This document shows positions 1 to 17,653 of a stretch of 64,000 nt of DNA, one piece after another. Positions within the stretch are counted from its first letter, which is position 1, and each line of letters opens with the position of its first letter. Source of the stretch: Candidatus Poribacteria bacterium. Its GTDB lineage: Bacteria > Poribacteria > WGA-4E > PCPOR2b. The notes below the pieces were generated by a model. That model was not told the DNA's origin, made no database searches, and saw only the letters and a list, made by a program, of their open reading frames with translations. A program made the translations under genes and the position numbers. Where the stretch lies: contig OZ242351.1 in NCBI GenBank assembly GCA_965208675.1, forward strand, positions 544,001-608,000, read 5' to 3'.

Positions 1-2270
1 GCAGACGAAAGGCCAGGTTGTAGGTCATCAGCTCGAATCAGCAAACGATGATCGCCCCCATCCAATCGTATCGTCCAGATTTCCCAATTCCCTCGGCTGC
101 CAGTGTTCATATGTGTTTCGCTAACGCCGATTTCGACGGCGTGCCGTGATTGAAAAATCAACCGTTCTGAATCGGGGTGCCACGCGGGATTCAGATCGAT
201 TGCTAAGTCGCGAGTCAGACGCCGCCGCGAGTTGTCCGTGAGACTGAGCAATCAAATGTCCGCTGCTCCTCCCTCGTTACTGGCGAAAGCAATCCTCTTT
301 CCATCGGGCGACCAGGCCGGTGTCCGAAAAGAAACCTCCGCGTTGAAATCGATTAATGGAATGGTGTTGCCGCTACCTGCTACGGGCAACGGCGGCGTAT
401 TATCAATGATGAGTGGGACAGTCGTCTTTGCACGATTGCCTGCCGCGTCGACCGCCGTAAGCGCAACGGTATAAACGCCATTGAGGTTTGAAGTGTCCCA
501 ATCGGCTAACCGCTCTCGCTCAAATTGGGTACGAATAGGGTGGCGCAGTTGCGTCCAAGTCTGCGGTGAAGTCGTTTTCCCAAACCGAAGGCGGCATTCT
601 AACAGATTGGAATCTACACAGGAAGCAATCACGGGGATGGACCGTGTGACCACCGCATCGGGTTTAGGGAGGTGAATTTTCACAAGCGGGGGATTTCGAT
701 CGACAAACACCGGAAGCGAAGGCTCAGACAATTCGCTCCGATTTCCGACTGAGTCGGAAGCCTGAATCGCAGCACGATACCAAATGTTATCATCGTTATC
801 AAACTCAAAGATGCTTTTATTGGTCGATCCGATTTCGGTGAAATCTCCCCCGTCTTTCGAAACAAAAACGTGGTACCGAAATACAATGGCATTCTGAATG
901 GCTAACTGTTCTAGTGATTCCCATGAAAAAGTGAGGCGCGAGTCATTATCAAACCCCGGATCAGCGTCAGTATCATGGTGGATGGGTTGGGAAGGGCGCG
1001 TCGGGGGAATGGTATCGCGACGACTATAAAAGATCGCCGAGGATATAGATTCACTCGGGGTCGTCGATAGAGAAGGCCTATATTCCCAAACTAGATGGAG
1101 TTGCTCGTTTGGTAAATGACCGGTCTTAGCGATCGATGGTTGTGTCAATTCTGCCTCGACATCGGTAAAATGTCCTGCAGCTGTCCATCCTTGCACCGTT
1201 TGGCGCGAGACACCAATCTCCCAATTGGCTGATTCCCCTACATCTTGCCAAACTAACCACGCATCATTTTGGCGTACCACAATTTGTGGTGCAATTGAAA
1301 GGGAAGAACTCGCCGTGGCTTGTTGAATTTCCGTCCATGCCTCCCCGGAATCTGCGCTCTTGGTGGAAAAGACATTTGCCGGTGCATATTCACTTGAATG
1401 ACACTCCCACGCGACGCACACATGCGATTCAAGCGCCGCAATTGATGGCCTGCGACAAATGCCACCCGAATTGAGGTGGACATCGCTGCCCGGCATCAAG
1501 CCATCCCAACGTTTAAAAAAAATGTTATGGCTTGCGTCCCGGAAATCTAGCCACGTGGCATAGACAGAATTTAAGCCGCCGGCAACGTTTGGTTCACCTG
1601 TTTCCCAATCGCCCGGTGTGATTGACTGAGGCGGTAACCACGTTCGACCACTGTCGGGGCTTAGTGTGATAAAGGCTGTTTTCCGTGCGCCTGGGGTCAA
1701 TGTACTGCTGGAATCAGGTCTGCCCGCTTGACCTTCCCACACAACAGCGATCCAATTACCAATGGTCGATATGGCGATTTTCGGTCGACGGATTGAAGCA
1801 CCATTATTCGATAGTGTCCGATGTGGAATCCAATTTCTCCCATCCCACGACGTATAGCGGCATTGAGTACCGACTGGGTTTGACTCCGACCATACGAAAT
1901 GAAGGCGCTGTTGATCGCAGGCGATTGCGGGTTGTACGGAATCTTTTCCGATGCTCGTAACTCGCTCCTCACGTTCCCACGTCACTCCGCCATCAAGGCT
2001 ATATCGAAAGAAAATTACCCACCTACCAAGTCGGTTGTCGCTCCAAGCAACAAAGATTTTACTTCCATCGGAACAAATCGCCGGATTTTTTGATATTCCA
2101 GAGCCAAGCGATAGGCGTGTGCCTGCGGTCCAGAATTCCGGGGTTGCGTAACATGGATAGATACAAGTCAATTCAAGGAGCCAACAAAATGAAATGTGCA
2201 TTAAAAACCGAGCGATTCTACGGATTGCACCGTGCGGCCCCTTCCCGTTTTCTAGTTTCGCGGTTTTCAC
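1..2270 (-). pseudogene. Large secreted protein (BNR/sialidase-like propeller, FN3/Ig-like domains, TolB/PD40 repeats) interrupted by an in-frame TGA at 252-254; runs off the window edge
   Basis: ORF 252..2270 has Asp-box motifs (SLDGGVTW, SPDSGRTW, SADSGEAW), Ig/FN3-like segments (DTIPP, DAAGN) and the start of a PD40 repeat (PAWSPDGKRIAFAS). Past the TGA the same frame stays open to base 1 with PD40 sequence (LLSLTDNSRRRLTRDLAIDLNPAWHPDSERLIFQS...NWEIWTIRLDG). A likely signal-peptide start is the ATG at 2201. Confidence 0.75.
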
Positions 2271-2273
2271 TTT

Positions 2274-2882
2274 TCACATTTGGCGGAAAAGCCCAACAAC
2301 CTTCCCTAAGACTTGAACCTCAGACACAACAATCGGATCCATATCGGGATTTTCAGGTTTCAAGCTAATTTTGTCGCCCTCATAGAAAAATCGCTTTACC
2401 GTAGCTTCATCGTCGAGCAAGGCAACTACAATGTCCCCTGGGTCTGCAACACTTTGTGATTTCACAACAACCAAATCTCCCTCCAGGATGCCGGCGTCAA
2501 TCATACTCGATCCATTTACCCGGAGGGCGAAGCAAGAATCGTCCTTAATCATATCCTTGGGAACGGGCAGACTTCCTTCTATGTTTTCAGAAGCCAAAAG
2601 AGGTACTCCAGCTGCCACACGCCCAACTATGGGAACTTCAACCGCTTGCGGTAGTCCCTTTTTTGATACATCGTCCAGGATTTCGATTGCCCGCGGTTTT
2701 CCGGTTGCGCGCTTGATGTACCCTTTCTTCTCAATAGCATTCAGATAATCGTGAGCAGCCTTTTCGGAAATTCCAAATGCTCTCCCAGTTTCGCGAACTG
2801 TCGGTGGATACCCGAAGTTCTGTAGGTGATACGAAATATATTCTAGGACTGTCTCCTGTTTTTTCGTCAACGGTTTACGCAT
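2274..2882 (-). CDS. lexA: SOS repressor LexA
   Basis: N-terminal wHTH (GYPPTVRE), Ala-Gly cleavage site (VAAG), Ser (GSSM) and Lys (TVKR) dyad; AGGAGG RBS upstream. Confidence 0.97.
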   Translation of the reverse strand: MRKPLTKKQETVLEYISYHLQNFGYPPTVRETGRAFGISEKAAHDYLNAIEKKGYIKRATGKPRAIEILDDVSKKGLPQAVEVPIVGRVAAGVPLLASENIEGSLPVPKDMIKDDSCFALRVNGSSMIDAGILEGDLVVVKSQSVADPGDIVVALLDDEATVKRFFYEGDKISLKPENPDMDPIVVSEVQVLGKVVGLFRQM

Positions 2883-2966
2883 TGTACTACCTCCTGCAGA
2901 TTAGAGAATAAGTGGCGTATAGAGCATACGCCTCGAATGTTGGAAACGATTTCTAGTCACCCTTTA

Positions 2967-2995
2967 ATTCAACTATACACAGGTTAAGATGTCAA
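2967..2995 (-). promoter_or_regulatory. Putative sigma-70 promoter of lexA
   Basis: Minus strand TTGACA-17 bp-TTGAAT. Confidence 0.5.
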
Positions 2996-3266
2996 GGAAA
3001 AACCGCATACAAGGCAGTGCGAAACGTTTAAACCCGATCAATTCGTGTGCGTCAGCCAATGGAATCGTTGAAAAAAATGGGTTGCATCGCCATTACAGAC
3101 GGCTGCAGGTAGAATTTGGCCAACCCGTAGACCTTGTGCGAATGTCCCTACATAAATTATGAAGCATTGGCATTATGATAGGACCATTGAATTTCATTGG
3201 TGAGGTGACCGAATGTCCACGTGTGAAGCCTCGCTGTTAGTACGATCCACGCAGTTCAGATATCAC

Positions 3267-6005
3267 TTATGCATGTCGGTGCTGCACGAAACTCATTGGA
3301 ATGAGAATCAATAGAGCGGGTATAATCACCCATTTCCATTCTGTAAAGAGCGGCTCTATCCCGAGGATTGGATGCGCTAAGGGGAGATAGACGATGAACA
3401 CGTGTAAACCCATACACGCCAGAATAGTAATTAACAAGGGCACATTCGCTATGATTCTTTTGAGAAGGGATTGCCAAGGATGTCGATGGCATTGAAAGGT
3501 TGCGGCAAGTTGTGTAAAGATTAATATGGAACATGCGACTGTTTGCGCCTGTACCTGTCCCGACGATTGCAAGGTCGCCACAAACCCTACAATTGTCATG
3601 AGTGCAATCCAAAGACTGCGGACCAGGATGTCAAAGCGATAGTCTCTTGAGAGGAAGGGTGAAATCCTGTGGCTTCGGTTGTGCTTCAGCTCGCCCTGTA
3701 TTCGATTTTGGCCGAGCGCAATTAGCGGAATTAAATTGACGATTAGATGGATCCAGATGATGTGATGCAGAGTAAGCGGCATTGGGAATTCGCGCCACAA
3801 CTGCAGCCCTGATCCGATTTGAAGGACGAGCCCAATCAATAGCGTGGTCATCTGTGATAGTGCACAGGTCAACAGCCATCGCATGGAATTTTTAAGGTTG
3901 CTGTGAGCTTCCCGTGCGTGAAGCAGCAGATCGCCAATGTAACGAAATCCGTCCTTGAATATCAAACAACCCGAGTTTTTTTGGATGACGGGAGACGCAC
4001 ATGAAGCGGATGCAATACTGACATCAGCGGCCTCCATTGCCCGTGTGTCAGTAGGCGCTTGTCCGCAAAAACCGACGGAATGATTGTTGTGTTTAAGTTT
4101 TTCTACTAACTTGAGTTTTTGATCTGCAGACGGGCTGCAATATACGAGTAACCGATTGGCAATCGAATCGTAATGTTCATCGCTAAATTTGTCTAGGTCT
4201 GAACGGGATACAACAGCATTTCCATCCTGGATAATACCAAATTCTCGCGCAACGTCTGTCGAATTTTCCTTGTCTTTCTCAGTTATCAGGACGACTTTAA
4301 CTCCTGCACCTAAGCAAAACTCAACGCTCTCTTTGGAACCTTCAAACTCCTGCTGGGTAAAAGCGACTAAACCCAAAAAAGTTAAGTTTCGGCCAATTTC
4401 GTCTTGCGGTGGAAGGGAATTCCGACTTCGATAGGCGACACCAAAAACTTGGGCTCTGTTATCCGACAAATATTGAGCAGCTAGACGAATCATCTGCTTT
4501 TGGTCAAAACTAATACGATCCATGGTTTCGCCGATTTGAATTCGTTGGGCGCCCTGTATTATCGCGTCGGGGTGGCCAAACATAACATTTAAAAACCTGT
4601 TTTCTTGCGTTTCCAAAACAACTGCATTAAAAGGCGGTCCTGCTGCTTCCGTTATTTCAGCGACTTTCGTTAAGGATGCGTCATAATGCTCTAAATCAAA
4701 TCCAATTTGGTCCGCTAGCTTAATCAGTGCTTCAGAAACAACATCTGCCGAAGGGTTTTGGCTGATTAACTCGCGGCTTTTTCCATGGGTCTTGCAAAGC
4801 GTCGCCAGTAAAATCAACAGTTGAAAACCTGGCGAGACTGAGGCATTTGGCGGTAGAGAACCCTCCAGAGCCTCATCAGTCTCTTGAGGAGAAGTCTCGG
4901 CATGTTTTAACCTATCCTCCCACGATTCTCTGTCGATGAGTTCTTCATCAATAAAAACACGAGACGCGGACATTTGCTCTTTCGTGAAATTACCAATTTC
5001 ATTGACGCATACGGCTGTGATGCTGCTGAGCCGCTCAAGGTTTACCGCATCGCGAATACCAATGCCCTTTTTAAACAACCTGTGAGCATTTCCTGCTAGC
5101 GTTGCCCGACACGTTGAAACAATCCCGTCAGGAATGGAAGCGATTACAAAGCCTAGTCCAAGAAAAAGTAGTGATTGCCAATTTTCCTCAAAGCTCTGGC
5201 GTTGAAAGTACCAAGTCGCCAAGACTGCAATCCCTCCTAAAATCAGACCAATAATCTTAAAACGATTATAAACCGAGTCCATCTGAATCTCTGCTTCCGA
5301 TTCCAAATTAAGCGCCGTAGGGACATTGCGATACGGCTGGTTGATTTCTAATTCTTCGCCTGTTCCGACGACAATGGCGCGCCCCTCGCCCTCTAAAACA
5401 AACGTGCCCGCAAAAACCATGTTGGCCTGTTTTTCAGGCGGTACGGTCCGATCGGGCAAGTCATCGATTGTTTTCTGCGTAGACATCGACATGCCGAATA
5501 GCGGAGTTTCATCAACAACCAGATCGTCCGCATCAACTATTCGTGCGTCAGCGGAAATGTAACTCCCTTCAGCTAGGACAAGCAAATCTCCCGGTACAAC
5601 CGATTCAGGTGTGACATTTTCAAGTCGTGCATCCCGAATGACTGAGACTGTAATTTTTAGACTGCGCTTAATTGATTGGTGATGCGAGCGGGATTTGCTA
5701 TCTTGGAAAAACCGCCAAAGCAGGTGGAGGCAGAGAACACCAAAAACAGCGATGGCCTCTAGAAGAGAGCGGTTGGGATAGATATGGATAATTCCAACGA
5801 TGACTAAGATAACAACCGTAACACTAGTCAGTTGCCGCGCGAAGAAGGAAAGGATAGGCCTTTCATGGGATGGTAGAATTGCGTTGTTGCCGTATTCAGC
5901 TCGCCGTGCACTTGCTTCATCACCGCTCAACCCACGCTCAAGATCAGTATTAAACTCATGTAGAATGTATGGAATCTTCTGGGTGTACCAATTAGATGTG
6001 TTCAT
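3267..6005 (-). CDS. P2A-type (Ca2+/cation) P-type ATPase homolog with degenerate catalytic motifs
   Basis: Cation-ATPase N-terminus (GLSGDEASARRAEYGNN), A domain (VPGDLLVL..G.YISADARI), P/N domains and a C-terminal TM bundle are all present. The phosphorylation motif reads NEIGNFT. Confidence 0.9.
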   Translation of the reverse strand: MNTSNWYTQKIPYILHEFNTDLERGLSGDEASARRAEYGNNAILPSHERPILSFFARQLTSVTVVILVIVGIIHIYPNRSLLEAIAVFGVLCLHLLWRFFQDSKSRSHHQSIKRSLKITVSVIRDARLENVTPESVVPGDLLVLAEGSYISADARIVDADDLVVDETPLFGMSMSTQKTIDDLPDRTVPPEKQANMVFAGTFVLEGEGRAIVVGTGEELEINQPYRNVPTALNLESEAEIQMDSVYNRFKIIGLILGGIAVLATWYFQRQSFEENWQSLLFLGLGFVIASIPDGIVSTCRATLAGNAHRLFKKGIGIRDAVNLERLSSITAVCVNEIGNFTKEQMSASRVFIDEELIDRESWEDRLKHAETSPQETDEALEGSLPPNASVSPGFQLLILLATLCKTHGKSRELISQNPSADVVSEALIKLADQIGFDLEHYDASLTKVAEITEAAGPPFNAVVLETQENRFLNVMFGHPDAIIQGAQRIQIGETMDRISFDQKQMIRLAAQYLSDNRAQVFGVAYRSRNSLPPQDEIGRNLTFLGLVAFTQQEFEGSKESVEFCLGAGVKVVLITEKDKENSTDVAREFGIIQDGNAVVSRSDLDKFSDEHYDSIANRLLVYCSPSADQKLKLVEKLKHNNHSVGFCGQAPTDTRAMEAADVSIASASCASPVIQKNSGCLIFKDGFRYIGDLLLHAREAHSNLKNSMRWLLTCALSQMTTLLIGLVLQIGSGLQLWREFPMPLTLHHIIWIHLIVNLIPLIALGQNRIQGELKHNRSHRISPFLSRDYRFDILVRSLWIALMTIVGFVATLQSSGQVQAQTVACSILIFTQLAATFQCHRHPWQSLLKRIIANVPLLITILACMGLHVFIVYLPLAHPILGIEPLFTEWKWVIIPALLILIPMSFVQHRHA

Positions 6006-6159: not shown

Positions 6160-7092
6160 CTATTTTCCGCGCGAATTTGTATGTTCTCCTATATGCACGG
6201 CTGCGCCGGTAGAATCAATCGATAGAATCTTTACGTTGCATGACACTCCATGCATTGCAAAAGCTTGATTCATTTGATTAGCGATTTCTTGTTCTGCCTT
6301 AATACAAAAAGCAGCAACACTTGGTCCCGCTCCGCTGAGCGCAATCCCTATTGCGCCTGCTCTCATAGCGGCTTCAGCAACATCGTCAAATCCCGGTACC
6401 AGCGATTTTCGATATGGTTGATGCAACCGGTCACGCATTGCGAGCGGCAACAATTCAAGGTTTCCAGTTGCAAATGCAGCGACGAGTAAGGAGCTGCAAC
6501 TTACGTTGTGCACAGCGTCGCAGAAATTTACAGTGTCGGGCAAAACCCCGCGTGCCCGTTCTGTCGGCATCTGGAAATCTGGTATGGCTACGGCAACGGA
6601 AAGATTCGGTTCACAATCCAATTTGATGGTGTGAACTCGCCCGTCAAGTGTAAGTGATACAACCAACCCTCCAAGTAGAGAAGCGGCAACATTATCTGGA
6701 TGCCCCTCAAGTGCAGTTGCGAAATTGAGTAGTTCGTCCGGCGAAAATGGATCGCCGCAAAGCGCGTTAGCTGTTAACAAACCTCCGAGAATAGCCGTAC
6801 CGCTGCCACCCAAGCCTCGAATTGCCGGGATGCCATTCTCAATACGCAATCTGAGCCCTTTGGGTTGGTAGCAGGATTTCTCAAAAACCACATTTGCAGC
6901 GCGATAGGCAACATTATCGACACCATTGGTAATGATTTCTGAATCAACCCCGCTTACGAGAATTTCAATGCCGGAATCAATCTCTTCTAGTTCAACCGTG
7001 CTGTAAAGTTGGAGGGCCAATCCGAGCGCATCGAAGCCAGGCCCTAAATTCGTGGTGCTTGCCGGAATCCGGGCGATTGCTTTTCGCGGCAT
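6160..7092 (-). CDS. thrB: Homoserine kinase
   Basis: PASTTNLGPGFD, IPAIRGLGGSG (GHMP motif), EGHPDN, SGAGPS. Confidence 0.96.
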   Translation of the reverse strand: MPRKAIARIPASTTNLGPGFDALGLALQLYSTVELEEIDSGIEILVSGVDSEIITNGVDNVAYRAANVVFEKSCYQPKGLRLRIENGIPAIRGLGGSGTAILGGLLTANALCGDPFSPDELLNFATALEGHPDNVAASLLGGLVVSLTLDGRVHTIKLDCEPNLSVAVAIPDFQMPTERARGVLPDTVNFCDAVHNVSCSSLLVAAFATGNLELLPLAMRDRLHQPYRKSLVPGFDDVAEAAMRAGAIGIALSGAGPSVAAFCIKAEQEIANQMNQAFAMHGVSCNVKILSIDSTGAAVHIGEHTNSRGK

Positions 7093-7100
7093 AAATTTTC

Positions 7101-8270
7101 CTAGTTATTGATGCGTGAAATTGCCGCGTCCATGCGGGTTAATGCTTCGCTGATATTTTCTAAGGAATTTGCATACGACAACCTAATGTAACCGTCACCG
7201 GATTTGCCAAACCCGGTGCCAGACAATACGGCAACGCCCGCCTCTTCAAGCAGATAATCCTCCAACGCTTCGCACGACAGTGGAAGTTGCGTGACATTCG
7301 CCAAGACGTAGAATGCACCAAGCGGTGTAATACAACCGATACCATCAATGGAATTCAATCCTTCCACAATTAAATCACGCCGCTGCCTGAACTCGGTTAC
7401 CATTTGAAGGACGAAATCTTGCGGCCCCTTCAAGGCTTCAATTCCAGCTATCTGTGTGAACGAACAGGTACAGGAATTGGAGTTAATCATCAATTGTGTA
7501 ATTTTTTCCGCCATGGGTTTGGGCGAAATCCCGTATCCCAACCGCCATCCCGTCATCGCATAGGTTTTAGAATGACCTTCAATTAGAATTGTCCGCTCCT
7601 TCATACCGGGAAGGCTGATTATACTTTCATGGACACCTTCATATAAAATGCGCGAATAAACTTCATCTGTTAATACATAAAAATCGTGCTTAATCGCTAA
7701 TTCCGCGATGGCTTCGAGATCAGATTTTTCCAAAATACCGCCCGTTGGATTTTGAGGCGAATTGATGATTAGAAGCCGTGTCCGATCTGAGACTGCTGAG
7801 GCAAGATCTTCAATTCGGAAGCGGAAGTCAACGTCTTCACGCAGCGGAAGTGGAACCGGTGTACCTCCGACAAAGTTGATGACCGATTCGTAAACTGGAA
7901 AGCCGGGGTCGGGATAGATGATTTCACTTCCTGGGTCGGCGAGTGCGAAAATAGTAAAAAAGATAATGGGTTTGGCACCGGGAGTAACTGCGACTTCCTC
8001 AGGATGGACTATGACCCCTCTGGTTTCTGAGATATGCTCAGCCGCGACTTCACGAAATTCAACTAGTCCCGCGGAGGGACCGTATCCGGTGTATCCGTCC
8101 TTCATCGCCTTATACCCCGCTTCGCAGATGTTCATCGGAGTATTGAAATCCGGTTGTCCGATTTCGAGATGTATGATATTCCGGCCTTTTGCTTCTAGAT
8201 CTTTTGCTTTTGCCAGCACTTCGAAGGCGGATTCAGTTCCTAGCCGACTCATTCGCTGTGCAAATCTCAT
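7101..8270 (-). CDS. PLP-dependent class I/II (aspartate-type) aminotransferase
   Basis: GQPDF, NSPQNPTG, DEVY, SKTYAMTGWRLG (PLP Lys). Confidence 0.93.
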   Translation of the reverse strand: MRFAQRMSRLGTESAFEVLAKAKDLEAKGRNIIHLEIGQPDFNTPMNICEAGYKAMKDGYTGYGPSAGLVEFREVAAEHISETRGVIVHPEEVAVTPGAKPIIFFTIFALADPGSEIIYPDPGFPVYESVINFVGGTPVPLPLREDVDFRFRIEDLASAVSDRTRLLIINSPQNPTGGILEKSDLEAIAELAIKHDFYVLTDEVYSRILYEGVHESIISLPGMKERTILIEGHSKTYAMTGWRLGYGISPKPMAEKITQLMINSNSCTCSFTQIAGIEALKGPQDFVLQMVTEFRQRRDLIVEGLNSIDGIGCITPLGAFYVLANVTQLPLSCEALEDYLLEEAGVAVLSGTGFGKSGDGYIRLSYANSLENISEALTRMDAAISRINN

Positions 8271-8318: not shown

Positions 8319-9356
8319 TTATTCAGAATATTTCATTACGAAACCGTTGTTGCCGGTAATCCAAATATGGTTCGCATCCAGAATGAACAGGTCGTTGACC
8401 GGAACTTTACTAATGATTGTGCCTTCAATGCTCTGGTTTTCCCACGTTTTGCCGCCGTCGGTTGTATGAATGACGATGTTGATTCCCATATCGCCTCCAA
8501 CCGCCCACCCCACCTTCTTGTCGACAAACTGCACACTAGAGAGCGTTTCCTGCGTATTGCTCGATTGTATTTTCCATCTATCTCCACCATTTGTAGTGTG
8601 CAGCACGACGCCGCCTTCACCTACTGCCCATCCGGTTGACGCGTCAATGAAAAATATATCTTTGAGGGTATCTTCAACGTTAGTGGGTTGATCCGCCCAG
8701 GTTTTTCCACCGTCCGTGGTTTTCTTAACGATCCCGTTTTGAACGCCAGCTTGAGGATTCACAAAAACTCCCGCTATCCACCCGGTCGATTCGTCGATAA
8801 ATTGCACGCAGTTGAACAATCCCTCCGGTTCTTCTCCAATTCGAGTAGGGAGCACGCCGCCTTGTATGATATTCCATATTTTCCCGCCGTTCGTTGTTTG
8901 TAAGATGGTTTCTCCCATGCCCACCGCATAACCGATTTCTTTGTTTACAAAGTGAATATCATACAACCAGTTGTCGACTTTACTAGTTTGGATATCCCAT
9001 TGTTTGCCGCCGTTTGATGTGCCGACAATCATCCCATTCGCCCCAACAGCCCAACCGTGCTTCTTATCAAAGAAAAAGACATTCGAGAGAATTTGATTGA
9101 CGGCAACCTCCGCTTTCTCCCATGTTTTCCCGCCGTTCGTCGTATGACCGATATATCCCGGATTCTCCATTTCCAAAGCAGAAACCCCTGCGACCCATCC
9201 TTCTCTCGCACTCACAAATATAATCGCGTTATAATCTCGAATATCCTCATTATCCTGTTCCTGCAGGGCAAACCATAATCCGTCGCCGTAAAGCGCGGTT
9301 GTAAAGACCATGGATGCAAGTAAAAGCGTTGTCAGAAACACTGTCTTGGTGTACAT
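8319..9356 (-). CDS. Secreted YCF48-like BNR-repeat beta-propeller protein
   Basis: Signal peptide plus repeated F.D...GWAVG..G.I..T.[ND]GG.TW blades. Confidence 0.88.
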   Translation of the reverse strand: MYTKTVFLTTLLLASMVFTTALYGDGLWFALQEQDNEDIRDYNAIIFVSAREGWVAGVSALEMENPGYIGHTTNGGKTWEKAEVAVNQILSNVFFFDKKHGWAVGANGMIVGTSNGGKQWDIQTSKVDNWLYDIHFVNKEIGYAVGMGETILQTTNGGKIWNIIQGGVLPTRIGEEPEGLFNCVQFIDESTGWIAGVFVNPQAGVQNGIVKKTTDGGKTWADQPTNVEDTLKDIFFIDASTGWAVGEGGVVLHTTNGGDRWKIQSSNTQETLSSVQFVDKKVGWAVGGDMGINIVIHTTDGGKTWENQSIEGTIISKVPVNDLFILDANHIWITGNNGFVMKYSE

Positions 9357-9680: not shown

Positions 9681-10565
9681 ATGTTGAATCAAGTAGAGAT
9701 TGACTACTACCACTCAAACGGCTACATCGCAGTTGAAAATGTCCTATCGGTAGAAGAAATCGCTGACCTCCAACGTGTTACAGATGAATTTGTTGAAAAA
9801 TCGCGCGAAGTTGCTGCACATGACGATGTGTTTGATTTGGAACCGGGTCATAGTTCTCAAGCACCACGAGTTCGCCGCATCAAGAATGCAGCAATCCATC
9901 ATTCGGTATATGACCGGACGTTGCGTAACGATCGGATTCTCGACATTGTCGAACAACTTATTGGTCCTGGTGTGAGTCACAACGGCCACAAACTCAACAT
10001 GAAATACCCAAAGTTCGGGAGTCCAGTAGAGTGGCATCAGGATTGGGCGTTCTATCCACACACGAATGACCGCCTGCTAGCGGTCGGTGTAGCGATTGAC
10101 GATATGTTGTTTGAAAACGGCTGCCTGATGGTTATCCCTAAGTCACATAAGGGTCGAATTTTCAATCATCATCAGAACGGTGCCTTCGTTGGCGCAGTCA
10201 CAGATGCTAATTTTCAGCCGAATAATGCCGTTCCCATTGAAGTTAAATCCGGCGGTATATCGATTCATCATGTCCGTACACTGCACGGTTCCGCGCAAAA
10301 CGTCTCAGATAAACCTCGCCGCCTGTTACTCCTGCAGTATTGTGCCGTCGACGCTTGGCCGCTTGTCAAACCGCCAGATTGGCACAATTTTGCCTCGCTT
10401 GTTTTGCGAGGCAAAACCACAAATCAGCCGCATATGACCGCTGTACCCGTTCGGATGCCATTCCCGCAGGGGGCGCGGACCGGTACAATCTACGAAGTTC
10501 AGAGCCTGCTGGAACAGCGTATATTCCGTATGAATAAGCCTGGCGATGGAGGAGCAGCTGGTTGA
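9681..10565 (+). CDS. Phytanoyl-CoA dioxygenase (PhyH) family Fe/2OG oxygenase
   Basis: WHQD motif, ENGCL.VIPKSH, LHGS distal His, PRR. Confidence 0.92.
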   Translation: MLNQVEIDYYHSNGYIAVENVLSVEEIADLQRVTDEFVEKSREVAAHDDVFDLEPGHSSQAPRVRRIKNAAIHHSVYDRTLRNDRILDIVEQLIGPGVSHNGHKLNMKYPKFGSPVEWHQDWAFYPHTNDRLLAVGVAIDDMLFENGCLMVIPKSHKGRIFNHHQNGAFVGAVTDANFQPNNAVPIEVKSGGISIHHVRTLHGSAQNVSDKPRRLLLLQYCAVDAWPLVKPPDWHNFASLVLRGKTTNQPHMTAVPVRMPFPQGARTGTIYEVQSLLEQRIFRMNKPGDGGAAG

Positions 10566-10753
10566 ACGGTACGCAGCGCAATTGGTGTCTGGAAAGCGGT
10601 AATTTTCAGGATTGCGCCGCTCCATAACGGCAGCGAACGCAAAATATAGCCGGTAAATGTGCTTGATTTTGATTGCGTGGTAGGGTTGAGGTCTCAGAAA
10701 TCCGACCTACATTGATGGAGCGTGGAATAACACTATCCTTACTCAATTTTATT

Positions 10754-10810
10754 TTGTCATAATGGCATACACACAGAGCGAAGCGTTAGCGGGTTGTCAA
10801 CTTGGCAACC
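10754..10810 (+). promoter_or_regulatory. Two candidate enhancer-binding-protein (UAS) boxes, TGTCA-N3-TGGCA
   Basis: TTGTCATAATGGCAT (10754-10768) and the near-perfect palindrome GGTTGTCAACTTGGCAACC (10792-10810), 40 bp apart, upstream of a sigma-54 motif. Confidence 0.6.
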
Positions 10811-10940
10811 CAAAGGTCGCAGCGGTATCGGCGAAGGTGGAATACCGGCATTTTCAATCCAACGGAATACGAGCCGTCGGAGCGGGTGCCTGCTCGCATT
10901 TGAATAGAATTTCCTCTAATTTTTGATGGATTTTAAGTTT

Positions 10941-10956
10941 TGGCATGCAACTTGCT
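10941..10956 (+). promoter_or_regulatory. Sigma-54 (-24/-12) promoter of hsp20
   Basis: TGGCATGCAACTTGCT matches TGGCAC-N5-TTGCW with exact GG-N10-GC spacing. Confidence 0.75.
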
Positions 10957-11030
10957 AAATCTTAGGTCGTCTGATGAAAATGGCATCAGCAACCTAAAAA
11001 CGCTAAACCACAAATTAGGAAGAAAATAAA

Positions 11031-11474
11031 ATGACTAACTTTTCGCGCAGAAACATTTCAAGCATGTACAATAGGATGGACAGAATCTTTGACGACTTCT
11101 TTGGTGGACGGCCCGCATTCCTTCGGTCGGAATCTGGCGATTGGGATTGGAGTCCGCCGGTGGATATCACTGAATCAGATGATTCCCTAGAAATCCGGGC
11201 TGAGGTTCCAGGTCTAACAAAGAACGATGTAAGCGTTGAAGTAAATGAAAACGTCCTGACCGTTAGAGGTGAGAGAAAGCAGGAAAACGGGGACAAGAAT
11301 GAGGCTGTGCATCGTATTGAACGTGCCTATGGCCGATTCCAACGAACTTTCACGTTATCAAAAAGCGTTCGTTCTAAGGACGCGAAGGCATCGTTCAAGG
11401 ACGGAGTGTTGACGCTTTCCATTCCTAAGATTGAACAGCCCAAACCGACAGCGATTCCAATCAGTGTTGAATAA
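11031..11474 (+). CDS. Hsp20/alpha-crystallin small heat-shock protein
   Basis: PPVDI.E, ERAYGRFQRTF, A.FKDGVL.L.IPK, C-terminal IxI-type motif (IPISVE). Confidence 0.96.
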   Translation: MTNFSRRNISSMYNRMDRIFDDFFGGRPAFLRSESGDWDWSPPVDITESDDSLEIRAEVPGLTKNDVSVEVNENVLTVRGERKQENGDKNEAVHRIERAYGRFQRTFTLSKSVRSKDAKASFKDGVLTLSIPKIEQPKPTAIPISVE

Positions 11475-11496
11475 TTACACTGGGTTGGGTTATCAT

Positions 11497-11533
11497 AAAG
11501 GCGTCCCGAACGGAAATACGGGGCGCCTTTTTT
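11497..11533 (+). terminator. Rho-independent terminator after hsp20
   Basis: AAAGGCGTCCCG-loop-CGGGGCGCCTTT followed by a T run. Confidence 0.85.
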
Positions 11534-11658
11534 CAATTTTAATATTGGTACCTAATGTATAATGAAAATTGAAACTTTCCCTAACGCGTTGGTGTGACTG
11601 GAACAGACAAAACAAAATAAAAAAATACTCACCGAAAATTGGTTAGGAGGACAATAAA

Positions 11659-13197
11659 ATGCTTCGAATCTTTTCAACCAAATTGGGAATTGCACTGATT
11701 TTTTGCGTGATTGTTGCAGTAGCAATCTCAACCAAAGTAGATTTCTTCGCAACTAATACGGCAGTCGGTCAGGCTACAGATGACGATTTCGCCTATTTAG
11801 AACGGGCAAACCGTGCTTTTATTGAAGTGATAAACGCTGCGAAACCCTCAGTCGTGCAGATTACGACAACAAAACAGGTGTCGGGCAGGGGCCCGCAACG
11901 TCAATTCGATTTTTTTGATGATGAATTATTCCGATATTGGTTCGGTGAACCCCGTAATCGCCGAAATCCGAATGAACCCCAAGAGGAACGAGAGGTGGAG
12001 GGACTCGGATCAGGGGTAATAGTCACTAAAGACGGATACATCTTGACCAACAATCACGTAATTGATCGCGCGGAGGACATTAAAGTTACCCTTTCGGATG
12101 GGCTAGAATTTGAGGCTGAAGTGGTCGGAAAAGATCCGGGTAAGGACGGAACAGATGTCGCGGTACTGAAGATAGACGGCAGTAATTTGCCCGCCTTGGA
12201 GTTTGGCGACTCGGACGACCTCCAGGTAGGAGAATGGGTTGTTGCGATTGGGTCCCCATTTTCATTAGCACAGACGGTGACACGAGGCGTGGTCAGCGCG
12301 AAAGGTCGTTCAGAGAATGAAATCAAAGTGGTGAGCTATGGAGACTTCATTCAGACCGATGCACCAATTAATCGGGGAAATAGTGGTGGCGCTCTTATAA
12401 ATATACGCGGTCAGTTAGTGGGGATTAATACAGCCATAGTAACGAGCGGAGGTTTTTCTCTGGGTAATGTCGGTGTAGGTTTAGCGATTCCAATCAACCT
12501 CGCGGACCGAATCATGAGGTCGTTAATTGAGAAGGGCGAAGTTGAACGAGGATGGCTGGGAGTTAGCTTACAGGAGATTAATCAGGGTAACGCAGCACAA
12601 TTTGCACTTGCTGAACCCCGCGGTGTTCTAGTTAATAAGGTTGGTAGAAGTTCGCCTGCGGACGAGGCAGGAATGCAGAAAGGTGATGTGATTGTTGAAT
12701 TCAACAACGTTACAATTCGCGATCCAAAACACCTTCGCGATACCGTTGCCATAACAGATGTCGGTAAAACCGTTGACGTGAAAATTATACGACGGGGTAA
12801 AGAGAAATCCTTGAAGGTACGACTTGGCAAACGGACTGGTGAAGCCCTCGCATCTATGGGTGGTTCGTCACCCTATAATCCCGGCGGACAAGACGCAGAA
12901 GCCTTTGCAGGGTTAAGGGTTAGCGAACTCACTGATCGGCTCGCCGCGGAATACCGTCATCAGGGTGAAAAAGGGGTGATTGTCCTAAACGTTGAAAGAA
13001 GGAGTCCTGCTGCGCGAGCAGGTATCCGCAGGGGAGATCTTATTCAAGAAATCCATTGGGAAAAGGTAACTACTATCGCGGATTATCGTGAACGGATTAA
13101 GGCACTATCAGATGAATCCGAGGTCGTATTTTATGTTAGACACAGAAACGGATTACCGGAATATGTCGTACTGAAGAACATCGAATCGCAGAAATGA
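11659..13197 (+). CDS. DegP/DegQ (HtrA, Do family) serine protease with two PDZ domains
   Basis: LTNNHV, TDVAVLKI, INRGNSGGAL triad motifs; RGWLGV leading into PDZ1 and PDZ2. Confidence 0.96.
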   Translation: MLRIFSTKLGIALIFCVIVAVAISTKVDFFATNTAVGQATDDDFAYLERANRAFIEVINAAKPSVVQITTTKQVSGRGPQRQFDFFDDELFRYWFGEPRNRRNPNEPQEEREVEGLGSGVIVTKDGYILTNNHVIDRAEDIKVTLSDGLEFEAEVVGKDPGKDGTDVAVLKIDGSNLPALEFGDSDDLQVGEWVVAIGSPFSLAQTVTRGVVSAKGRSENEIKVVSYGDFIQTDAPINRGNSGGALINIRGQLVGINTAIVTSGGFSLGNVGVGLAIPINLADRIMRSLIEKGEVERGWLGVSLQEINQGNAAQFALAEPRGVLVNKVGRSSPADEAGMQKGDVIVEFNNVTIRDPKHLRDTVAITDVGKTVDVKIIRRGKEKSLKVRLGKRTGEALASMGGSSPYNPGGQDAEAFAGLRVSELTDRLAAEYRHQGEKGVIVLNVERRSPAARAGIRRGDLIQEIHWEKVTTIADYRERIKALSDESEVVFYVRHRNGLPEYVVLKNIESQK

Positions 13198-13574: not shown

Positions 13575-16500
13575 TCACTTTAAGAGCACCATATTCCCAG
13601 TGAATTCTTGGCTTTCACCGTTTGACTCGGTGATGCGCAAGAAATAGACATAGAGTCCACTCGCAACTATAACTCCCGCTTCGTTGCGTCCCGTCCAATG
13701 CCCCGCGCTATCACGTCGATGGTAACGCCCCGCAGGCTTAATTCCGAGGTTTTGGCGCCACACCAATAACCCCGACGCCGAATAGATTTCGATCTGTACA
13801 TCTGAAGGTACTGCAAGTTCATAGGGTATCCACACTTCCGGATTAAATGGGTTTGGATAAACCGGCAGTATGCCCGTTTTCTTAACTATGGGCAACTCAA
13901 AATTCGGACGGGACCGCTGTTTCGCCGATTCCACCCAGTACATTAACGCTTCTATCGCTTTCCGAGCATTGGGTGCGAGCCGCGGTTCGCGGCGTAACGC
14001 CGCTAACGCTTTTTCCAATTGGTCAAAATCTATCGCGGTGTACGAAGAATGGTTTGCGCTGGATGTCGCGGGCGGGTTTGTGTCAAAATTACTGCCATTT
14101 GTATTGTGCATCACGCGCATCAATTCTGGGGCTGTACTGGCGCCCTCTTCAAAATGTATCGCCACAAGCACCAAGTCGTCAACGTCAACAACCGCATCCC
14201 CATTGACATCCACGAAAGGAACGGTAATCTGGTCGCTGGCTTTCCCGAAGTGCCTGGCAACCAAAACTAAATCGAATATGTCTATAGTGGCATCTCGGTT
14301 AACATCCCAAGCGGAAGTGTTATTCAACATAACGCCAGGCGTGATACTACTCCAGTCTCGGCTTGCCAAATTGGCCTGGTTCTCTGCCTTGATTCTCGCG
14401 TAGTATGTTGTGTCAAATTCTCCCGTAAAGGTGCGCCGAGTTTTCCCGCTATCTACCGTCTCATCGAAAAGCATACCGGATTGAAAATCTCTAGAATCTA
14501 CATCGATCTGTAGGTGGTAAGCGCTAATACCGCTTGTGTCGTCAACGGCGTCCCATTCAAGTGTGATTTCGCGCGCGTTTGCCGTCTCATTCAACAACCA
14601 GTTGAGATTTGACACTACCGGCGGCGGCGTGCTATCGATTTTGAACCCATAATGACTTGCGTCGGTCCAATAACCTAACGCATCGCGGGCGCGAACATGC
14701 ACCCACCAAACACCGTCGCTCAACCCCGTGAATACTAACGCATTACTTCTGACAAGCGCCTCCGGATGTGTGTCGGGAACCGTTGCAGGTTCCCGATTTA
14801 AGATGAAGCTGTATTGTTGCCTAGCGTCCATCGTCGGTGAGGTCAGCAACTCCATTTGTGGCGAGTTGCTTGCATACCAACGATTGAAGTCTGGATGGGT
14901 GTTTGAGGTAACGATAGGGGGCAAAAGTGGCGTATGGTCAACGACAACGACTCCGTCGCTGTATACGTCGGTTGGCGGATTCTGCGAATCCGAAACAATT
15001 GCACGAAGGTAGTAACTGCCCTCCACAAGAGATTCGGTTTGCCAAGTGAACACTGATCGGTCTTGTGTCAAACCGGATTGAATCAATGTCGAACCGCCCT
15101 GTACGTTGTTACGGTCATAGAACAGCGCGACTGTGAAATTGTCGTCGTCGGAGTCAGATGCTTCCCAAGTAATTTGAAAGGAATCATCTGAGACAGCGCC
15201 TTCAACATTTGGAGCCGTGAATTGAAAGGACGGGGCGGTGTTAGGACGTAAAACCGCGTGGTGGGCGATGTATATTTCCTCAAGCGCCGCCAGCATGGGG
15301 AATTCACGTTTACGCCAAGCAACGGCAATGTCTGTAACGCTCTGGGGTAAGTCGTTGACTAGAATCTCCCAGAGCAAATCGGTTGCGTCGGAGACTCCGT
15401 CGTCATCAACCGCTGGTTGGTGGTCGATAGAATCAGCTGTATCAAAGATATCCCATAAAATGCTTGCTACTGTTCCCTCGACATTTTCCCCTTTAGTGTT
15501 CGATCCCATTCCTTCAACGTGCCCAGTCCACCACTGATTGGATTCGATATTCGGCACGATTTGATTGACGTAACCCTTAACGTTCAACGCGCGGTTATCA
15601 ACAGCTGCTTCCATAAATGCCGCCCAGCCTTCGTTGAAAGCGAAACCAGCATCCGATACTGTTTCAAGTCGGTGAGAGCCATGATACCTGCCTTTCGGCA
15701 CAGAGTTGTAATTGTAACCGTAAGCCGCGGTCATAACCGCGTGTCCATATTCATGGAACATTACTACACGCGTCCACTGATCGCCGTGGGCGATATTGAT
15801 TGTTTCGCTTGATACATGGCCTTCAATTGCTTCAGGAGCGTAGTAGGAGACGTTCTCAGTGCTAGGCCAAATGACGCGCACGGGACGGTCACGTTCCCAA
15901 CCTAGGCGGTTGAGCAAAAAGCCGTGTGCAAGTTGTACGGTGTTAAAAATATAACCAACGGCGCGGTTTGAATTTTGGGAACTCAAGGATAAATGAATTG
16001 TCGTGACGCCATCGGAGACATTACGAACAGTTTCTGAAGCAAACTCATATGCCTCCCCACTAGGACTTCCAATAGACAATACGCGGTTGTCAAATCGCAC
16101 CACGACATAAAGATTACGGGAGGAACTTCTGTTGAAATCCGAGTGCGAAACATTTTCAAATATGAATTCTCCACGGTCGTCAGCGACTGTTTCGTCAATT
16201 TTGATATCGCCGCCATCGGGCAAATCGTGGTAGAGCGCAACTTGGGGGCGGCGTACTGGAAGTTCCGTCCCCTCATTGTCGTTGAAATATACCACCGTAC
16301 CGCGAACCGCCATGTCACTCGCCCAGTTCGGGAAAGCTCGCGCCTGCACATGGGTTTCTAAATTTAGGTCGTCGACTGTTTGGTTAAATGGAACATCGCT
16401 AATTTGAGCGTACCCTGATGCCGCCCAAAGGTATACGTAGAAATGCTCAATTATGGTTTGACCATTTGAAAGCGCCGCGTAGATTGACGCTTGTAGGGGA

Positions 16501-16862
16501 TACACCCCCGGTTGCCCGACATTGATTAATACGCTAAAATTCTGATCCGGGGCATATTGAGAAAAGTAGACTCGATCAAAATGAACGGGCGAACTGGATG
16601 AAATCCCTTCAGGGAGGCGAAACTGAATGCGGGCGTAGCTAGTCACATGCAAGTTGGATCGAATTGTAAAAATGAGCGTGGCATCTTTACCAACTCGCGG
16701 TGCTCGCGTAAGCCGGAGTTTACCATTAAACGCCTGTGGACGGTGAGGTTGATGGGCGAATGCGGAGGAGAGTGTTTCAGCACAGAATATGGAAATTGAA
16801 AGCCATAAAACCAAAAATACGAGCCGCTCAAAACTAACAACGCGAGTTGCCAAGTGTAGCAT
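13575..16862 (-). CDS. Secreted zincin-like (HExxH) metalloprotease with Ig/FN3 domains, dockerin-like repeats and a FlgD-Ig/T9SS-like C-terminal domain
   Basis: HEYGH plus downstream FNEGWA; DVNRDATIDIFDLVLVARHFG and DVNGDAVVDVDDLV dockerin repeats; YPNPFNPEVWIPY...ASGLYVY...MVLLK tail. The start is probably near 16862, not 17090. Confidence 0.85.
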   Translation of the reverse strand: MLHLATRVVSFERLVFLVLWLSISIFCAETLSSAFAHQPHRPQAFNGKLRLTRAPRVGKDATLIFTIRSNLHVTSYARIQFRLPEGISSSSPVHFDRVYFSQYAPDQNFSVLINVGQPGVYPLQASIYAALSNGQTIIEHFYVYLWAASGYAQISDVPFNQTVDDLNLETHVQARAFPNWASDMAVRGTVVYFNDNEGTELPVRRPQVALYHDLPDGGDIKIDETVADDRGEFIFENVSHSDFNRSSSRNLYVVVRFDNRVLSIGSPSGEAYEFASETVRNVSDGVTTIHLSLSSQNSNRAVGYIFNTVQLAHGFLLNRLGWERDRPVRVIWPSTENVSYYAPEAIEGHVSSETINIAHGDQWTRVVMFHEYGHAVMTAAYGYNYNSVPKGRYHGSHRLETVSDAGFAFNEGWAAFMEAAVDNRALNVKGYVNQIVPNIESNQWWTGHVEGMGSNTKGENVEGTVASILWDIFDTADSIDHQPAVDDDGVSDATDLLWEILVNDLPQSVTDIAVAWRKREFPMLAALEEIYIAHHAVLRPNTAPSFQFTAPNVEGAVSDDSFQITWEASDSDDDNFTVALFYDRNNVQGGSTLIQSGLTQDRSVFTWQTESLVEGSYYLRAIVSDSQNPPTDVYSDGVVVVDHTPLLPPIVTSNTHPDFNRWYASNSPQMELLTSPTMDARQQYSFILNREPATVPDTHPEALVRSNALVFTGLSDGVWWVHVRARDALGYWTDASHYGFKIDSTPPPVVSNLNWLLNETANAREITLEWDAVDDTSGISAYHLQIDVDSRDFQSGMLFDETVDSGKTRRTFTGEFDTTYYARIKAENQANLASRDWSSITPGVMLNNTSAWDVNRDATIDIFDLVLVARHFGKASDQITVPFVDVNGDAVVDVDDLVLVAIHFEEGASTAPELMRVMHNTNGSNFDTNPPATSSANHSSYTAIDFDQLEKALAALRREPRLAPNARKAIEALMYWVESAKQRSRPNFELPIVKKTGILPVYPNPFNPEVWIPYELAVPSDVQIEIYSASGLLVWRQNLGIKPAGRYHRRDSAGHWTGRNEAGVIVASGLYVYFLRITESNGESQEFTGNMVLLK

Positions 16863-17002
16863 GTAAAACGAATACCTGCTTGCATTCATAGAACATGTGC
16901 TGGTGAAAGTCGTTTTCCCGTCTTCGTCAATCCGATGGTCCGAAACTATCCATGTGCGAAAACAAAATGAAGGTCGCAGTTTTCCTGTTTTCGCGGCTCG
17001 CA

Positions 17003-17653
17003 TTATTGATTTGCGAACCACATACCTAACATCATTCCTATAGCCATTAAGACGATTATTGTCCCGATAACACCCAGCACAAGCTTCCATGTCATCATTG
17101 CCGATTTTCCTTCTTCCTTTGATTCGCCCCTAGAATTTGGCTCGGCCTTTTCAACTTTTCGCGGCCGATTTTGAGGGCAAGCTCGAATTGAGGCTTGTTC
17201 TTCCCGCATTTCCCTCCGTTGCATTCGAATCTTTTCCACCAATCGCACCGTTTCAGACGCTGGTTCATTGGCTGCACGTGAATTCTGTTCAACCGTATTT
17301 GATTCACGTGAGCCCGCGCCATCGGTATCTGACTTTTGTGAAATGGATTGACTTGAAGATTTATAGGGAAGAATTGCATCATCGGCAAATTCCGAGTCCG
17401 CGCTTAAATGGGCATTTGAACGTGTGTCGTACTCAGGTTCAGCGGGTATCGTAGATTTCACTGCATGGGCTTTTTGATATTGATGGTCAATAGCATCACG
17501 ATTTGGGTTGTCAGTTTCAACCTCGGACTGCGCTAATTCGTCCGCCGCAGATTTATCCGATGTGCCCGATGGACGTTTACCCGCCCACATCGCGCGCCGT
17601 TGTTGTTTATATTTCTCCTTCAGTGCTTGCTTTTCTTCTTCGCTCAACTGCAT
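17003..17653 (-). CDS. Hypothetical protein with a low-complexity body and a C-terminal TM anchor
   Basis: AGGAG RBS; two similar charged motifs (KYKQQRRAMW, KIRMQRREMR); hydrophobic C-terminus. Confidence 0.7.
   Translation of the reverse strand: MQLSEEEKQALKEKYKQQRRAMWAGKRPSGTSDKSAADELAQSEVETDNPNRDAIDHQYQKAHAVKSTIPAEPEYDTRSNAHLSADSEFADDAILPYKSSSQSISQKSDTDGAGSRESNTVEQNSRAANEPASETVRLVEKIRMQRREMREEQASIRACPQNRPRKVEKAEPNSRGESKEEGKSAMMTWKLVLGVIGTIIVLMAIGMMLGMWFANQ

Follow-up and report, generated by a model that had tools for sequence, protein, structure and literature searches.

Can a gene keep the whole architecture of a P-type ATPase once the residues that make it a pump are gone, and if so, as what? 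The question is raised by one locus in a 64,000-nucleotide (nt) stretch of DNA from Candidatus Poribacteria bacterium (WGA-4E; PCPOR2b), positions 544,001–608,000 of the forward strand of contig OZ242351.1 (assembly GCA_965208675.1), the whole of which we refer to as the window. An open reading frame (ORF) at 3267..6005 on the minus strand encodes a protein of 912 amino acids (aa), P0001, which the original prediction had described as an intact P-type ATPase devoid of its catalytic and ion-binding residues. Judging from its sequence, its relatives and its predicted structure, we hold it highly probable that P0001 is a selected, non-catalytic ‘pseudo-pump’. The full explanation, a stand-alone pseudo-P-type ATPase that descends from bacterial P2A pumps and acts as an ATP-independent binding or scaffold module in the membrane, we consider likely; the particular scaffold or sensor mechanism, taken on its own, is close to an even call and if anything falls short of one.

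Replaced motifs in a retained P2-type architecture

The reading frame is open from its ATG start to its stop codon, as had been claimed for it. Three Pfam models match P0001 above their cut-offs (E1-E2_ATPase, 102 bits; Cation_ATPase_C, 74 bits; Cation_ATPase_N, 56 bits), and the HAD ‘Hydrolase’ model, which covers the catalytic P domain, stays just below its own (24.7 bits, cut-off 26.4). Among NCBIfam models the generic TIGR01494 is the only one passed. All equivalog models for P2 and P3 pumps score far under their cut-offs, at less than a third of them, the top two being the PMR1-type TIGR01522 (225 bits, cut-off 798) and the SERCA-type TIGR01116 (191 bits, cut-off 703). The closest solved structures are those of human SPCA1 and Listeria LMCA1, which match over the full length at E ~1e-55.

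A structure of the protein alone was predicted with AlphaFold2 (AF2), using an alignment of the 65-sequence clade described below (mean predicted local distance difference test score, pLDDT, 79.9; predicted template-modelling score, pTM, 0.69). The model contains the β-barrel of the actuator (A) domain, a Rossmann-like phosphorylation (P) domain, the nucleotide-binding (N) domain and, where the membrane is spanned, ten long helices. A Foldseek search of the PDB with it returned P2-type pumps only, with E-values down to 8e-44. Together with the Pfam matches, this bears out the earlier statement that the domains and transmembrane (TM) helices are retained, and the full fold is kept in the model. 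Template-modelling scores are 0.66–0.71 for E1-state P2 pumps (best, hSPCA1 CaE1, 0.71; SERCA E1-sarcolipin, 0.69; Na,K-ATPase E1.3Na+, 0.67) against 0.47–0.56 for E2 and E2P states, a weak hint that the model may be in an E1-like conformation. The nearest ESM Atlas clusters are ordinary bacterial Ca2+-ATPase clusters (score 0.97) and give no functional lead.

The domains and the replaced motifs lie at the following positions:

3267..6005, minus strand: pseudo-P-type ATPase ORF, protein P0001, 912 aa plus stop (ATG start, uninterrupted frame, Pfam domains, AF2, Foldseek)
5298..5660, minus strand: A (actuator) domain, aa 116–236, structural core kept, 21 positions common with canonical pumps
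5487..5498, minus strand: FGMS in place of the TGES dephosphorylation loop, aa 170–173 (alignment columns)
5121..5132, minus strand: PDGI in place of PEGL in TM4, aa 292–295 (MAFFT columns)
4983..5003, minus strand: NEIGNFT in place of the DKTGTLT phosphorylation motif, aa 335–341 (alignment columns), Gly retained
4386..4970, minus strand: homologue of the N (nucleotide-binding) domain, aa 346–540, fold predicted, nucleotide-contact columns lost, 13 clade-specific conserved positions
4566..4580, minus strand: FGHPD in place of KGAPE, aa 476–480 (alignment columns)
4344..4355, minus strand: QQEF in place of DPPR, aa 551–554 (alignment columns), variable inside the clade
4275..4289, minus strand: LITEK in place of MITGD, aa 573–577 (alignment columns), T/S retained, G and D lost
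4047..4064, minus strand: GQAPTD in place of GDGVND, aa 648–653 (alignment columns), last Asp retained
3270..3947, minus strand: S5 stalk and TM5–TM10, aa 687–912, clade invariants including E699, W710, D792, R796, C825, Q838, W844, R850, H868 and P903
3852..3866, minus strand: CALSQ in place of xNxxE in TM5, aa 714–718, the canonical Asn and Glu cation ligands changed to A/T/S and Q/L
3735..3749, minus strand: HLIVN in place of NLxTD in TM6, aa 753–757, the canonical Asn and Asp ligands changed to H/Q and N/T/S

Motif columns were located by HMMER alignment to human SPCA1 and by MAFFT alignment with 56 canonical homologues. All nine replaced motifs fall in homologous columns in both, so that each substitution listed by the original prediction stands, the phosphorylation motif being placed exactly at nt 4983–5003. 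Among the columns conserved to at least 90% in the 56 canonical sequences, 70 are lost in the clade of P0001 and 46 are kept, and the loss is therefore beyond chance. What is kept is mainly structural: the A-domain core (VPGD/ADxR), the Pro of TM4, the Gly of DKTG, an Arg and an Asn in S5, and the last Asp of GDGVND. These are also the elements common to P0001 and its best matches, the P2A Ca2+/Mn2+-ATPases (LMCA1, 6zhf/6zhh; SPCA1, 8iww/8iwp; TIGR01522; TIGR01116), with which it shares domain order and fold at an identity of only ~20–25%. Unlike these pumps, it has neither the phospho-Asp motif, the TGES Glu, the KGAPE Lys, TGD and the first GDGVND Asp nor the acidic and amide ligands of TM5 and TM6. 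Canonical N-domain columns are lost across the clade as well (aa 421–424, 453 and 519, in addition to the KGAPE Lys), and neutral polar residues replace the acidic Ca2+ ligands.

In SERCA, Lys and Thr hold the γ-phosphate and Mg2+, the first Asp of GDGVND binds Mg2+, and the Glu of TGES activates water. Since all of these are gone together with the N-domain columns, and the nucleophile itself is dispensable (see below), a Post-Albers cycle would not be available to P0001, which by its sequence has no capacity for canonical ATP binding, for the formation or hydrolysis of an aspartyl phosphate, or for Ca2+ coordination. Of six sequence-testable features that define a functional P2A pump, the architecture (A, P and N domains plus ten TM helices) alone is found; the five others, namely the DKTGT Asp, the TGES Glu, the N-domain nucleotide site, TGD with GDGVND, and the cation ligands of TM4, TM5 and TM6, are missing. 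Three marks of a pseudoenzyme, on the other hand, are present: a fold homologous to active enzymes, absence of essential catalytic residues, and purifying selection across species. We regard P0001 as a descendant of P2A pumps and not as a functional member of that group.

Conservation, selection and ancestry in Poribacteria

A word-indexed search of 5.8 billion proteins revealed 64 other clusters with identities from 98% to 32% (E 0 to 1e-141), after which comes a sharp gap, with ordinary P-type ATPases following at ~25% identity (E 1e-77 and worse). Motifs are degenerate in 65 of the 65 clusters of this clade; DKTG, TGE and GDG[VI]ND are intact in 56 of the 56 canonical matches listed past the identity gap. 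Among 41 related genomes of the order, 40 (four families, 13 of 14 genera) carry exactly one uninterrupted copy; the 41st, G008, consists of 910 contigs and has a 257-aa fragment at a contig end. At the level of the phylum, 170 of 176 genomes yield a match at E ≤ 1e-60, and the six that do not are 64–91% complete. Members are named ‘cation transporting ATPase C-terminal domain-containing protein [Candidatus Poribacteria bacterium]’ at NCBI and ‘Ca2+-transporting ATPase’ at JGI. Longer or fused forms were not found at E ≤ 1e-80 among proteins of 1597–4560 aa, which is weak evidence that there are none.

Motif states were counted in 81 genomes, the window and 80 named ones, the latter being the best loci of 377 stretches confirmed by tblastn with one genome per prokaryotic species; 77 of these 80 are metagenome-assembled genomes (MAGs) of Candidatus or uncultured Poribacteria, and three are ‘uncultured bacterium’ MAGs. 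Frames are open in all 80, at 873–970 aa, the 873-aa frame being cut by a contig end. The original prediction had named the presence of DKTGT at this locus in close relatives as a finding that would speak against it; DKTG occurs in none of the 81 genomes. Its Lys column holds Glu in 80 genomes and Gln in one, never Lys. The Thr column of TGES is equally uniform (Phe in 80, Tyr in one), the Lys column of KGAPE holds Phe in 70, the Pro of TM4 is kept in 80, and the last Asp of GDGVND is retained throughout. Other columns are variable. The Glu of TGES is never found (T in 45, S in 25, G in 8, M in 2, R in 1), nor is the first Asp of GDGVND (Q in 42, K in 21, R in 13, E in 4, H in 1); the ligand position of TM4 varies among E, H, Y, Q and D; and the DPPR stretch and the x positions of GDGVND change freely within the clade. 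The phospho-site itself is Asp in 50 genomes, Asn in 27, Ser in two, Gln in one and His in one. The Lys-to-Glu and Thr-to-Phe replacements are fixed among orthologues, and the phospho-site is not. Since even near-identical congeners alternate there between Asn (P0029/P0030) and Asp (P0022–P0027), the carboxylate at this site is not under selection, and the alternation is hard to reconcile with any phosphorylation chemistry.

Pairwise ratios of nonsynonymous to synonymous substitution rates (dN/dS, Nei-Gojobori) were calculated for eight orthologue pairs. They range from 0.10 to 0.25 for the pseudo-pump, compared with 0.06–0.19 for its neighbour thrB and 0.02–0.11 for the adjacent aminotransferase gene. 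Codon-bootstrap 95% intervals for three pairs are 0.077–0.132, 0.195–0.301 and 0.084–0.131. Divided by domain, dN/dS is 0.06–0.18 for P, the most constrained, 0.08–0.21 for A and 0.07–0.26 for N, with upper bootstrap bounds of at most 0.33 across domain comparisons. The lowest column entropy in the protein is that of TM5–6 (1.25 bits). At 62 positions a residue is conserved to at least 90% in the clade where canonical pumps have another: 6 in A, 14 in P, 13 in N, 6 in TM3–4, 8 in S5/TM5–6, 13 in TM7–10, and one each in TM1–2 and L6–7. Examples are F170, E336, F476, D584, R655, Q675, E699, W710, D792, R796, C825, Q838, W844, R850, H868 and P903. We take low dN/dS combined with 62 newly fixed positions as the mark of a re-purposed protein and not of a relic. 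The earlier proposal that the gene is selected for a non-pumping role and is not decaying agrees with these values, with bootstrap intervals well below 1 and with a single-copy orthologue kept throughout the order and the phylum.

Outside the order, five genomes were inspected (G041, G045, G051, G054, G056). Each has one P2-like ORF of 899–952 aa, and their phosphorylation motifs (NKKGIMT, EREWGIT, DPRGVMT, DPKGVLT and DPQGVIT) are degenerate in differing ways. The orthologue from family f9, P0124 (G057:C73:5576-8308, L041), has the motif EHTGGFT with Glu at the phospho-site; it also keeps the Thr of TGES (as TGRA) and has His for the last Asp of GDGVND. Because P0124 differs in these respects, the residues newly conserved in the main clade cannot be universal in the phylum. 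A profile search of 1.84 billion representatives returned four members of the clade and a few intermediate sequences that are likewise degenerate (P0124–P0128, P0151, P0179, P0193, P0248), followed by canonical DKTGT pumps. The pseudo-pump appears to be confined to Poribacteria, nearly all of which carry it. A few otherwise canonical proteins from the profile search, P0252 and P0263 among them, keep DKTG and have altered TGES, GDGVND or TM6 motifs, e.g. TSDT / GDGIRD / KILID; partly degenerate P2-type proteins may exist in other lineages.

A tree of 61 rows was built with a ‘quick’ LG+G4 run. It comprised 13 members of the clade, 13 other degenerate sequences, 34 canonical pumps drawn at random from about 190, and the CopA of the window genome as outgroup. 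Of the 26 degenerate rows, 24 fall on one branch (SH-aLRT 99) that arises among bacterial P2A-like pumps; the remaining pair, P0179 and L058, which represent another class of the phylum, has no resolved position at the base. Gene order speaks for orthology in some lineages. In G056, from a different order, the succession Ycf48-like > aminotransferase > thrB > degenerate ATPase is retained. G057 has aminotransferase > thrB > ATPase, and G045 keeps Ycf48-like > ATPase without the two metabolic genes. The catalytic loss is old, dating to the base of Poribacteria or close to it, and the single-copy orthologue has been held by purifying selection since.

Proposed role and its alternatives

Without an ATP cycle, the fold would act as a membrane-embedded module for binding or scaffolding. 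The conserved, uncharged polar lining of TM5, TM6 and TM8 (S/C/T/Q, H/Q, N/T) would form a cavity that accommodates a small ligand or an ion. The headpiece would be re-wired by its newly fixed residues: the TGES Thr and the KGAPE Lys have both given way to Phe and the DKTGT Lys to Glu, and an Arg follows the retained last Asp of GDGVND. Such a headpiece would serve as a rigid docking or signal-relay surface, not as an engine. A binding, scaffold or sensor function is favoured because constraint is strongest in the cytosolic P domain and because both catalytic loop tips now carry a conserved Phe. A bolder version, which we advance tentatively and would not call probable, is that the 62 newly fixed residues define a stand-alone membrane device that works without ATP, as a sensor of a ligand or an ion or else as a gated passive conduit, near-universal in the phylum and the first neofunctionalised family of prokaryotic pseudo-P-type ATPases.

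The main rival is a passive conduit, in which the membrane domain would let a small cation, a proton or a neutral solute pass as a channel or uniporter that needs no ATP, with the headpiece as its gate or plug. The strong conservation of TM5–6 fits such a pore, and so do the polar faces of the ion-site helices (S713, C714, T715, Q718, T721; T745, Q748, H/Q753, N/T757; T822, C825, T826, T827, Q832), the 13 clade-specific invariants in TM8 and TM7–10, and the closer match of the model to cytoplasm-open E1 states than to E2 states. Yet the acidic ligands are gone, contrary to cation selectivity; a simple pore would have no need of the cytosolic P domain, where constraint is greatest; and the known P-type pumps open their outer gate only when phosphorylated, in E2P states. 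We rate a conduit as unlikely. A classic pseudoenzyme role, that of a regulatory or assembly partner, depends on which other transporters are at hand. The window genome (4.89 Mb, single contig, 96% complete) has two E1-E2_ATPase matches, the pseudo-pump and a 772-aa CopA-like P1B pump with CxxC, CPC, TGES, DKTGTLT and GDGINDAP; TIGR01494 matches the same two genes, and Cation_ATPase_C matches the pseudo-pump only. An active P2 paralogue was thus not found in this genome by searches with these three models. The usual pattern in the 41 genomes of the order is one strong CopA-like match plus the pseudo-pump, sometimes with a third of Kdp size. One of them, G028, is 99% complete and has the pseudo-pump as its sole PF00122 (E1-E2_ATPase) match, with no active P-type ATPase detected by this search. 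The suggested role as regulator of an active P2A pump is therefore not supported, the window genome holding no second P2-type gene and G028 having the pseudo-pump alone. Partnership with the CopA-like ATPase or another transporter would draw on the canonical CopA-like gene of the window genome and on at least one strongly scoring second PF00122 match in 40 of the 41 genomes. It is improbable, more so than a conduit, given that the two genes lie ~2 Mb apart and belong to different subfamilies (P1B and P2), that G028 manages without such a match, and that no transporter is a conserved neighbour, except for a DUF6785/DUF6784 membrane protein in one family.

Could P0001 instead be an active pump or phosphatase with relocated or non-canonical catalytic residues? 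Catalytic residues can migrate, as reviews of pseudoenzymes warn (PMC10211241), and one might point to the frequent phospho-site Asp with its invariant neighbouring Glu, T/S at the Thr of TGD, K/R at aa 630 and the last GDGVND Asp. However, the phospho-site Asp is freely swapped for Asn, Ser, Gln or His, even inside a genus. The first Asp of GDGVND, the DKTGT Thr after Lys, the TGES Glu, the KGAPE Lys and the N-domain columns are all lost together, and the HAD model, below its cut-off in P0001, does not appear among the Pfam domains precomputed for most members that are more distant. We give this reading very little credence. Least credible of all is a neutrally decaying relic, a pseudogene too young to have acquired stop codons: free variation in DPPR and at the GDGVND x positions is what decay would produce, but frames that stay open in 80 other genomes among sequences only 32–35% identical, the low dN/dS with its bootstrap bounds and the newly fixed positions refute it.

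Several points weigh against the reading that we prefer, a non-catalytic binding or scaffold module. About half of the genomes (50/81) do have Asp at the phospho-site, and the last GDGVND Asp is retained, as is K/R in the column of a canonical Lys (aa 630); together these may form a residual phosphate-binding pocket. The grouping of degenerate rows in the tree could be partly due to long-branch attraction, given the long branches and a fast model without site mixtures, and synteny, which supports orthology independently of the tree, does so for only some lineages. The promoter and terminator scan of the window is at background (12 found, 11.6 expected), and a search of sequencing runs with the pseudo-pump sequence found DNA-type runs only (two studies, no RNA run), which is uninformative on expression. 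The proposed mechanism is drawn from conservation patterns alone, in bacteria that are uncultured.

How does the pseudo-pump compare with what has been described? The FUPA families were reportedly defined in the survey of Chan et al. (2010). Bacterial P-type homologues with unknown substrates that lie outside the classical subfamilies include the TCDB ‘FUPA’ families and M. tuberculosis CtpH and CtpI (PMC10654040, PMC3573892). The nearest documented precedent for a non-catalytic P-type module comes from Plasmodium, where the guanylate cyclase GCbeta has a degenerate P4-ATPase-like domain (PMC6592433). This eukaryotic domain derives from P4 pumps (flippases) and is joined to cyclase domains, which provide the known activity, whereas the pseudo-pump is bacterial, of P2A ancestry and stand-alone. 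PcrP of Pseudomonas aeruginosa (PA2803 subfamily) is a HAD-superfamily protein reported as non-catalytic (PMC12632274); it is small and soluble, without A, N or TM domains, and would be related to the P domain of the pseudo-pump at the superfamily level only. In the full-text literature searched, with the 2010 FUPA survey and supplements outside it, no bacterial stand-alone P-type ATPase homologue without catalytic motifs was found described, and nothing was found on Poribacteria P-type ATPases of this kind. Among the passages of the 2023 Palmgren review ‘P-type ATPases: many more enigmas left to solve’ returned by term searches, none deals with inactive or degenerate forms. We interpret the Poribacteria protein as a phylum-wide, stand-alone pseudoenzyme derivative of a P2-type ATPase.

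Classification of P-type ATPases enters via DKTGT, and homologues without the motif are filtered out or mislabelled, as with the JGI name given above. In inventories of transporters of Poribacteria, prominent sponge symbionts, no Ca2+ or Mg2+ P-type pump can be credited on the strength of this gene. That an entire 900-residue pump architecture is kept under purifying selection after losing its chemistry suggests that the fold can do something other than pump; a dead pump of this size held across a phylum would surprise pump specialists. In this family, nature provides a case in which one can ask what an A/P/N headpiece and a TM4-6-8 cavity are able to do without ATP.

Genomic neighbourhood

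Synteny was analysed at 21 loci spanning the order. The genes that flank the pseudo-pump in the window are:

8319..9356, minus strand: Ycf48-like BNR β-propeller, first gene of the array (domain scan of the orthologue from L036)
7101..8270, minus strand: class I/II aminotransferase, part of the conserved co-directional array
6160..7092, minus strand: thrB-like GHMP kinase, directly upstream of the pseudo-pump and co-directional, 154-nt gap
2274..2882, minus strand: lexA, downstream and co-oriented, 384 nt from the pseudo-pump

The original prediction had pointed to synteny with both thrB and lexA. For thrB this proved general: it lies immediately upstream and co-directional in 17 of the 21 loci (gaps of 7–239 nt), and at 16 loci the array is complete, with the order Ycf48-like > aminotransferase > thrB > pseudo-pump, although one of these has an additional small ORF. 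lexA, downstream and co-oriented here as claimed, adjoins the pseudo-pump in two of the 21 loci only, the window and one congener; the adjacency is genus-specific, and we rejected lexA as a functional clue. In many families the array continues upstream to SppA, PCMT, a PorP/SprF-like protein and an Fn3/FlgD_ig protein. Neither a transporter partner nor a signalling enzyme was found among the neighbours at the 21 loci, save the DUF6785/DUF6784 membrane protein mentioned above. The latter is a 650-aa protein encoded convergently downstream in family f2 loci (L035–L040 and L042 being f2/f4 loci). A fragment of it lies ~8 kb from the pseudo-pump in L058, and the gene is absent from the neighbourhood in the window.

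The pseudo-pump is probably co-expressed with the Ycf48-like, aminotransferase and thrB genes. In the background-level scan the best promoter-like hexamers (9498–9471 and 9416–9388) lie upstream of the Ycf48-like gene and none in the gap between thrB and the ATPase, a placement compatible with co-transcription and no proof of it. Conceivably, the Ycf48-like protein, which looks secreted, may be linked in function to the pseudo-pump. The 384-nt non-coding gap between the stop codon of the pseudo-pump and the start of lexA (2883..3266) contains two terminator-like hairpins on the minus strand (3018–3002 and 2932–2914), which suggests separate transcription of lexA. The window has no match to any Rfam family at its gathering score, and thus no known riboswitch or leader in the 154-nt and 384-nt gaps.

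Downstream of lexA, and overlapping-adjacent to it (2270/2274), 252..2270 on the minus strand encodes a protein of 672 aa that combines BNR-like and PD40 repeats with an Ig-like domain and runs into a further open frame at the start of the window. Divergent from the array, 9681..13197 on the plus strand holds three candidates identified by eye, a 294-aa PhyH-like dioxygenase, a 147-aa Hsp20-like protein and a 512-aa HtrA/DegP-like protease, which are syntenic within the genus (clusters 8, 11 and 12). Beyond them, 13575..17090 on the minus strand reads, by eye, as a large secreted-type protein of 1171 aa.

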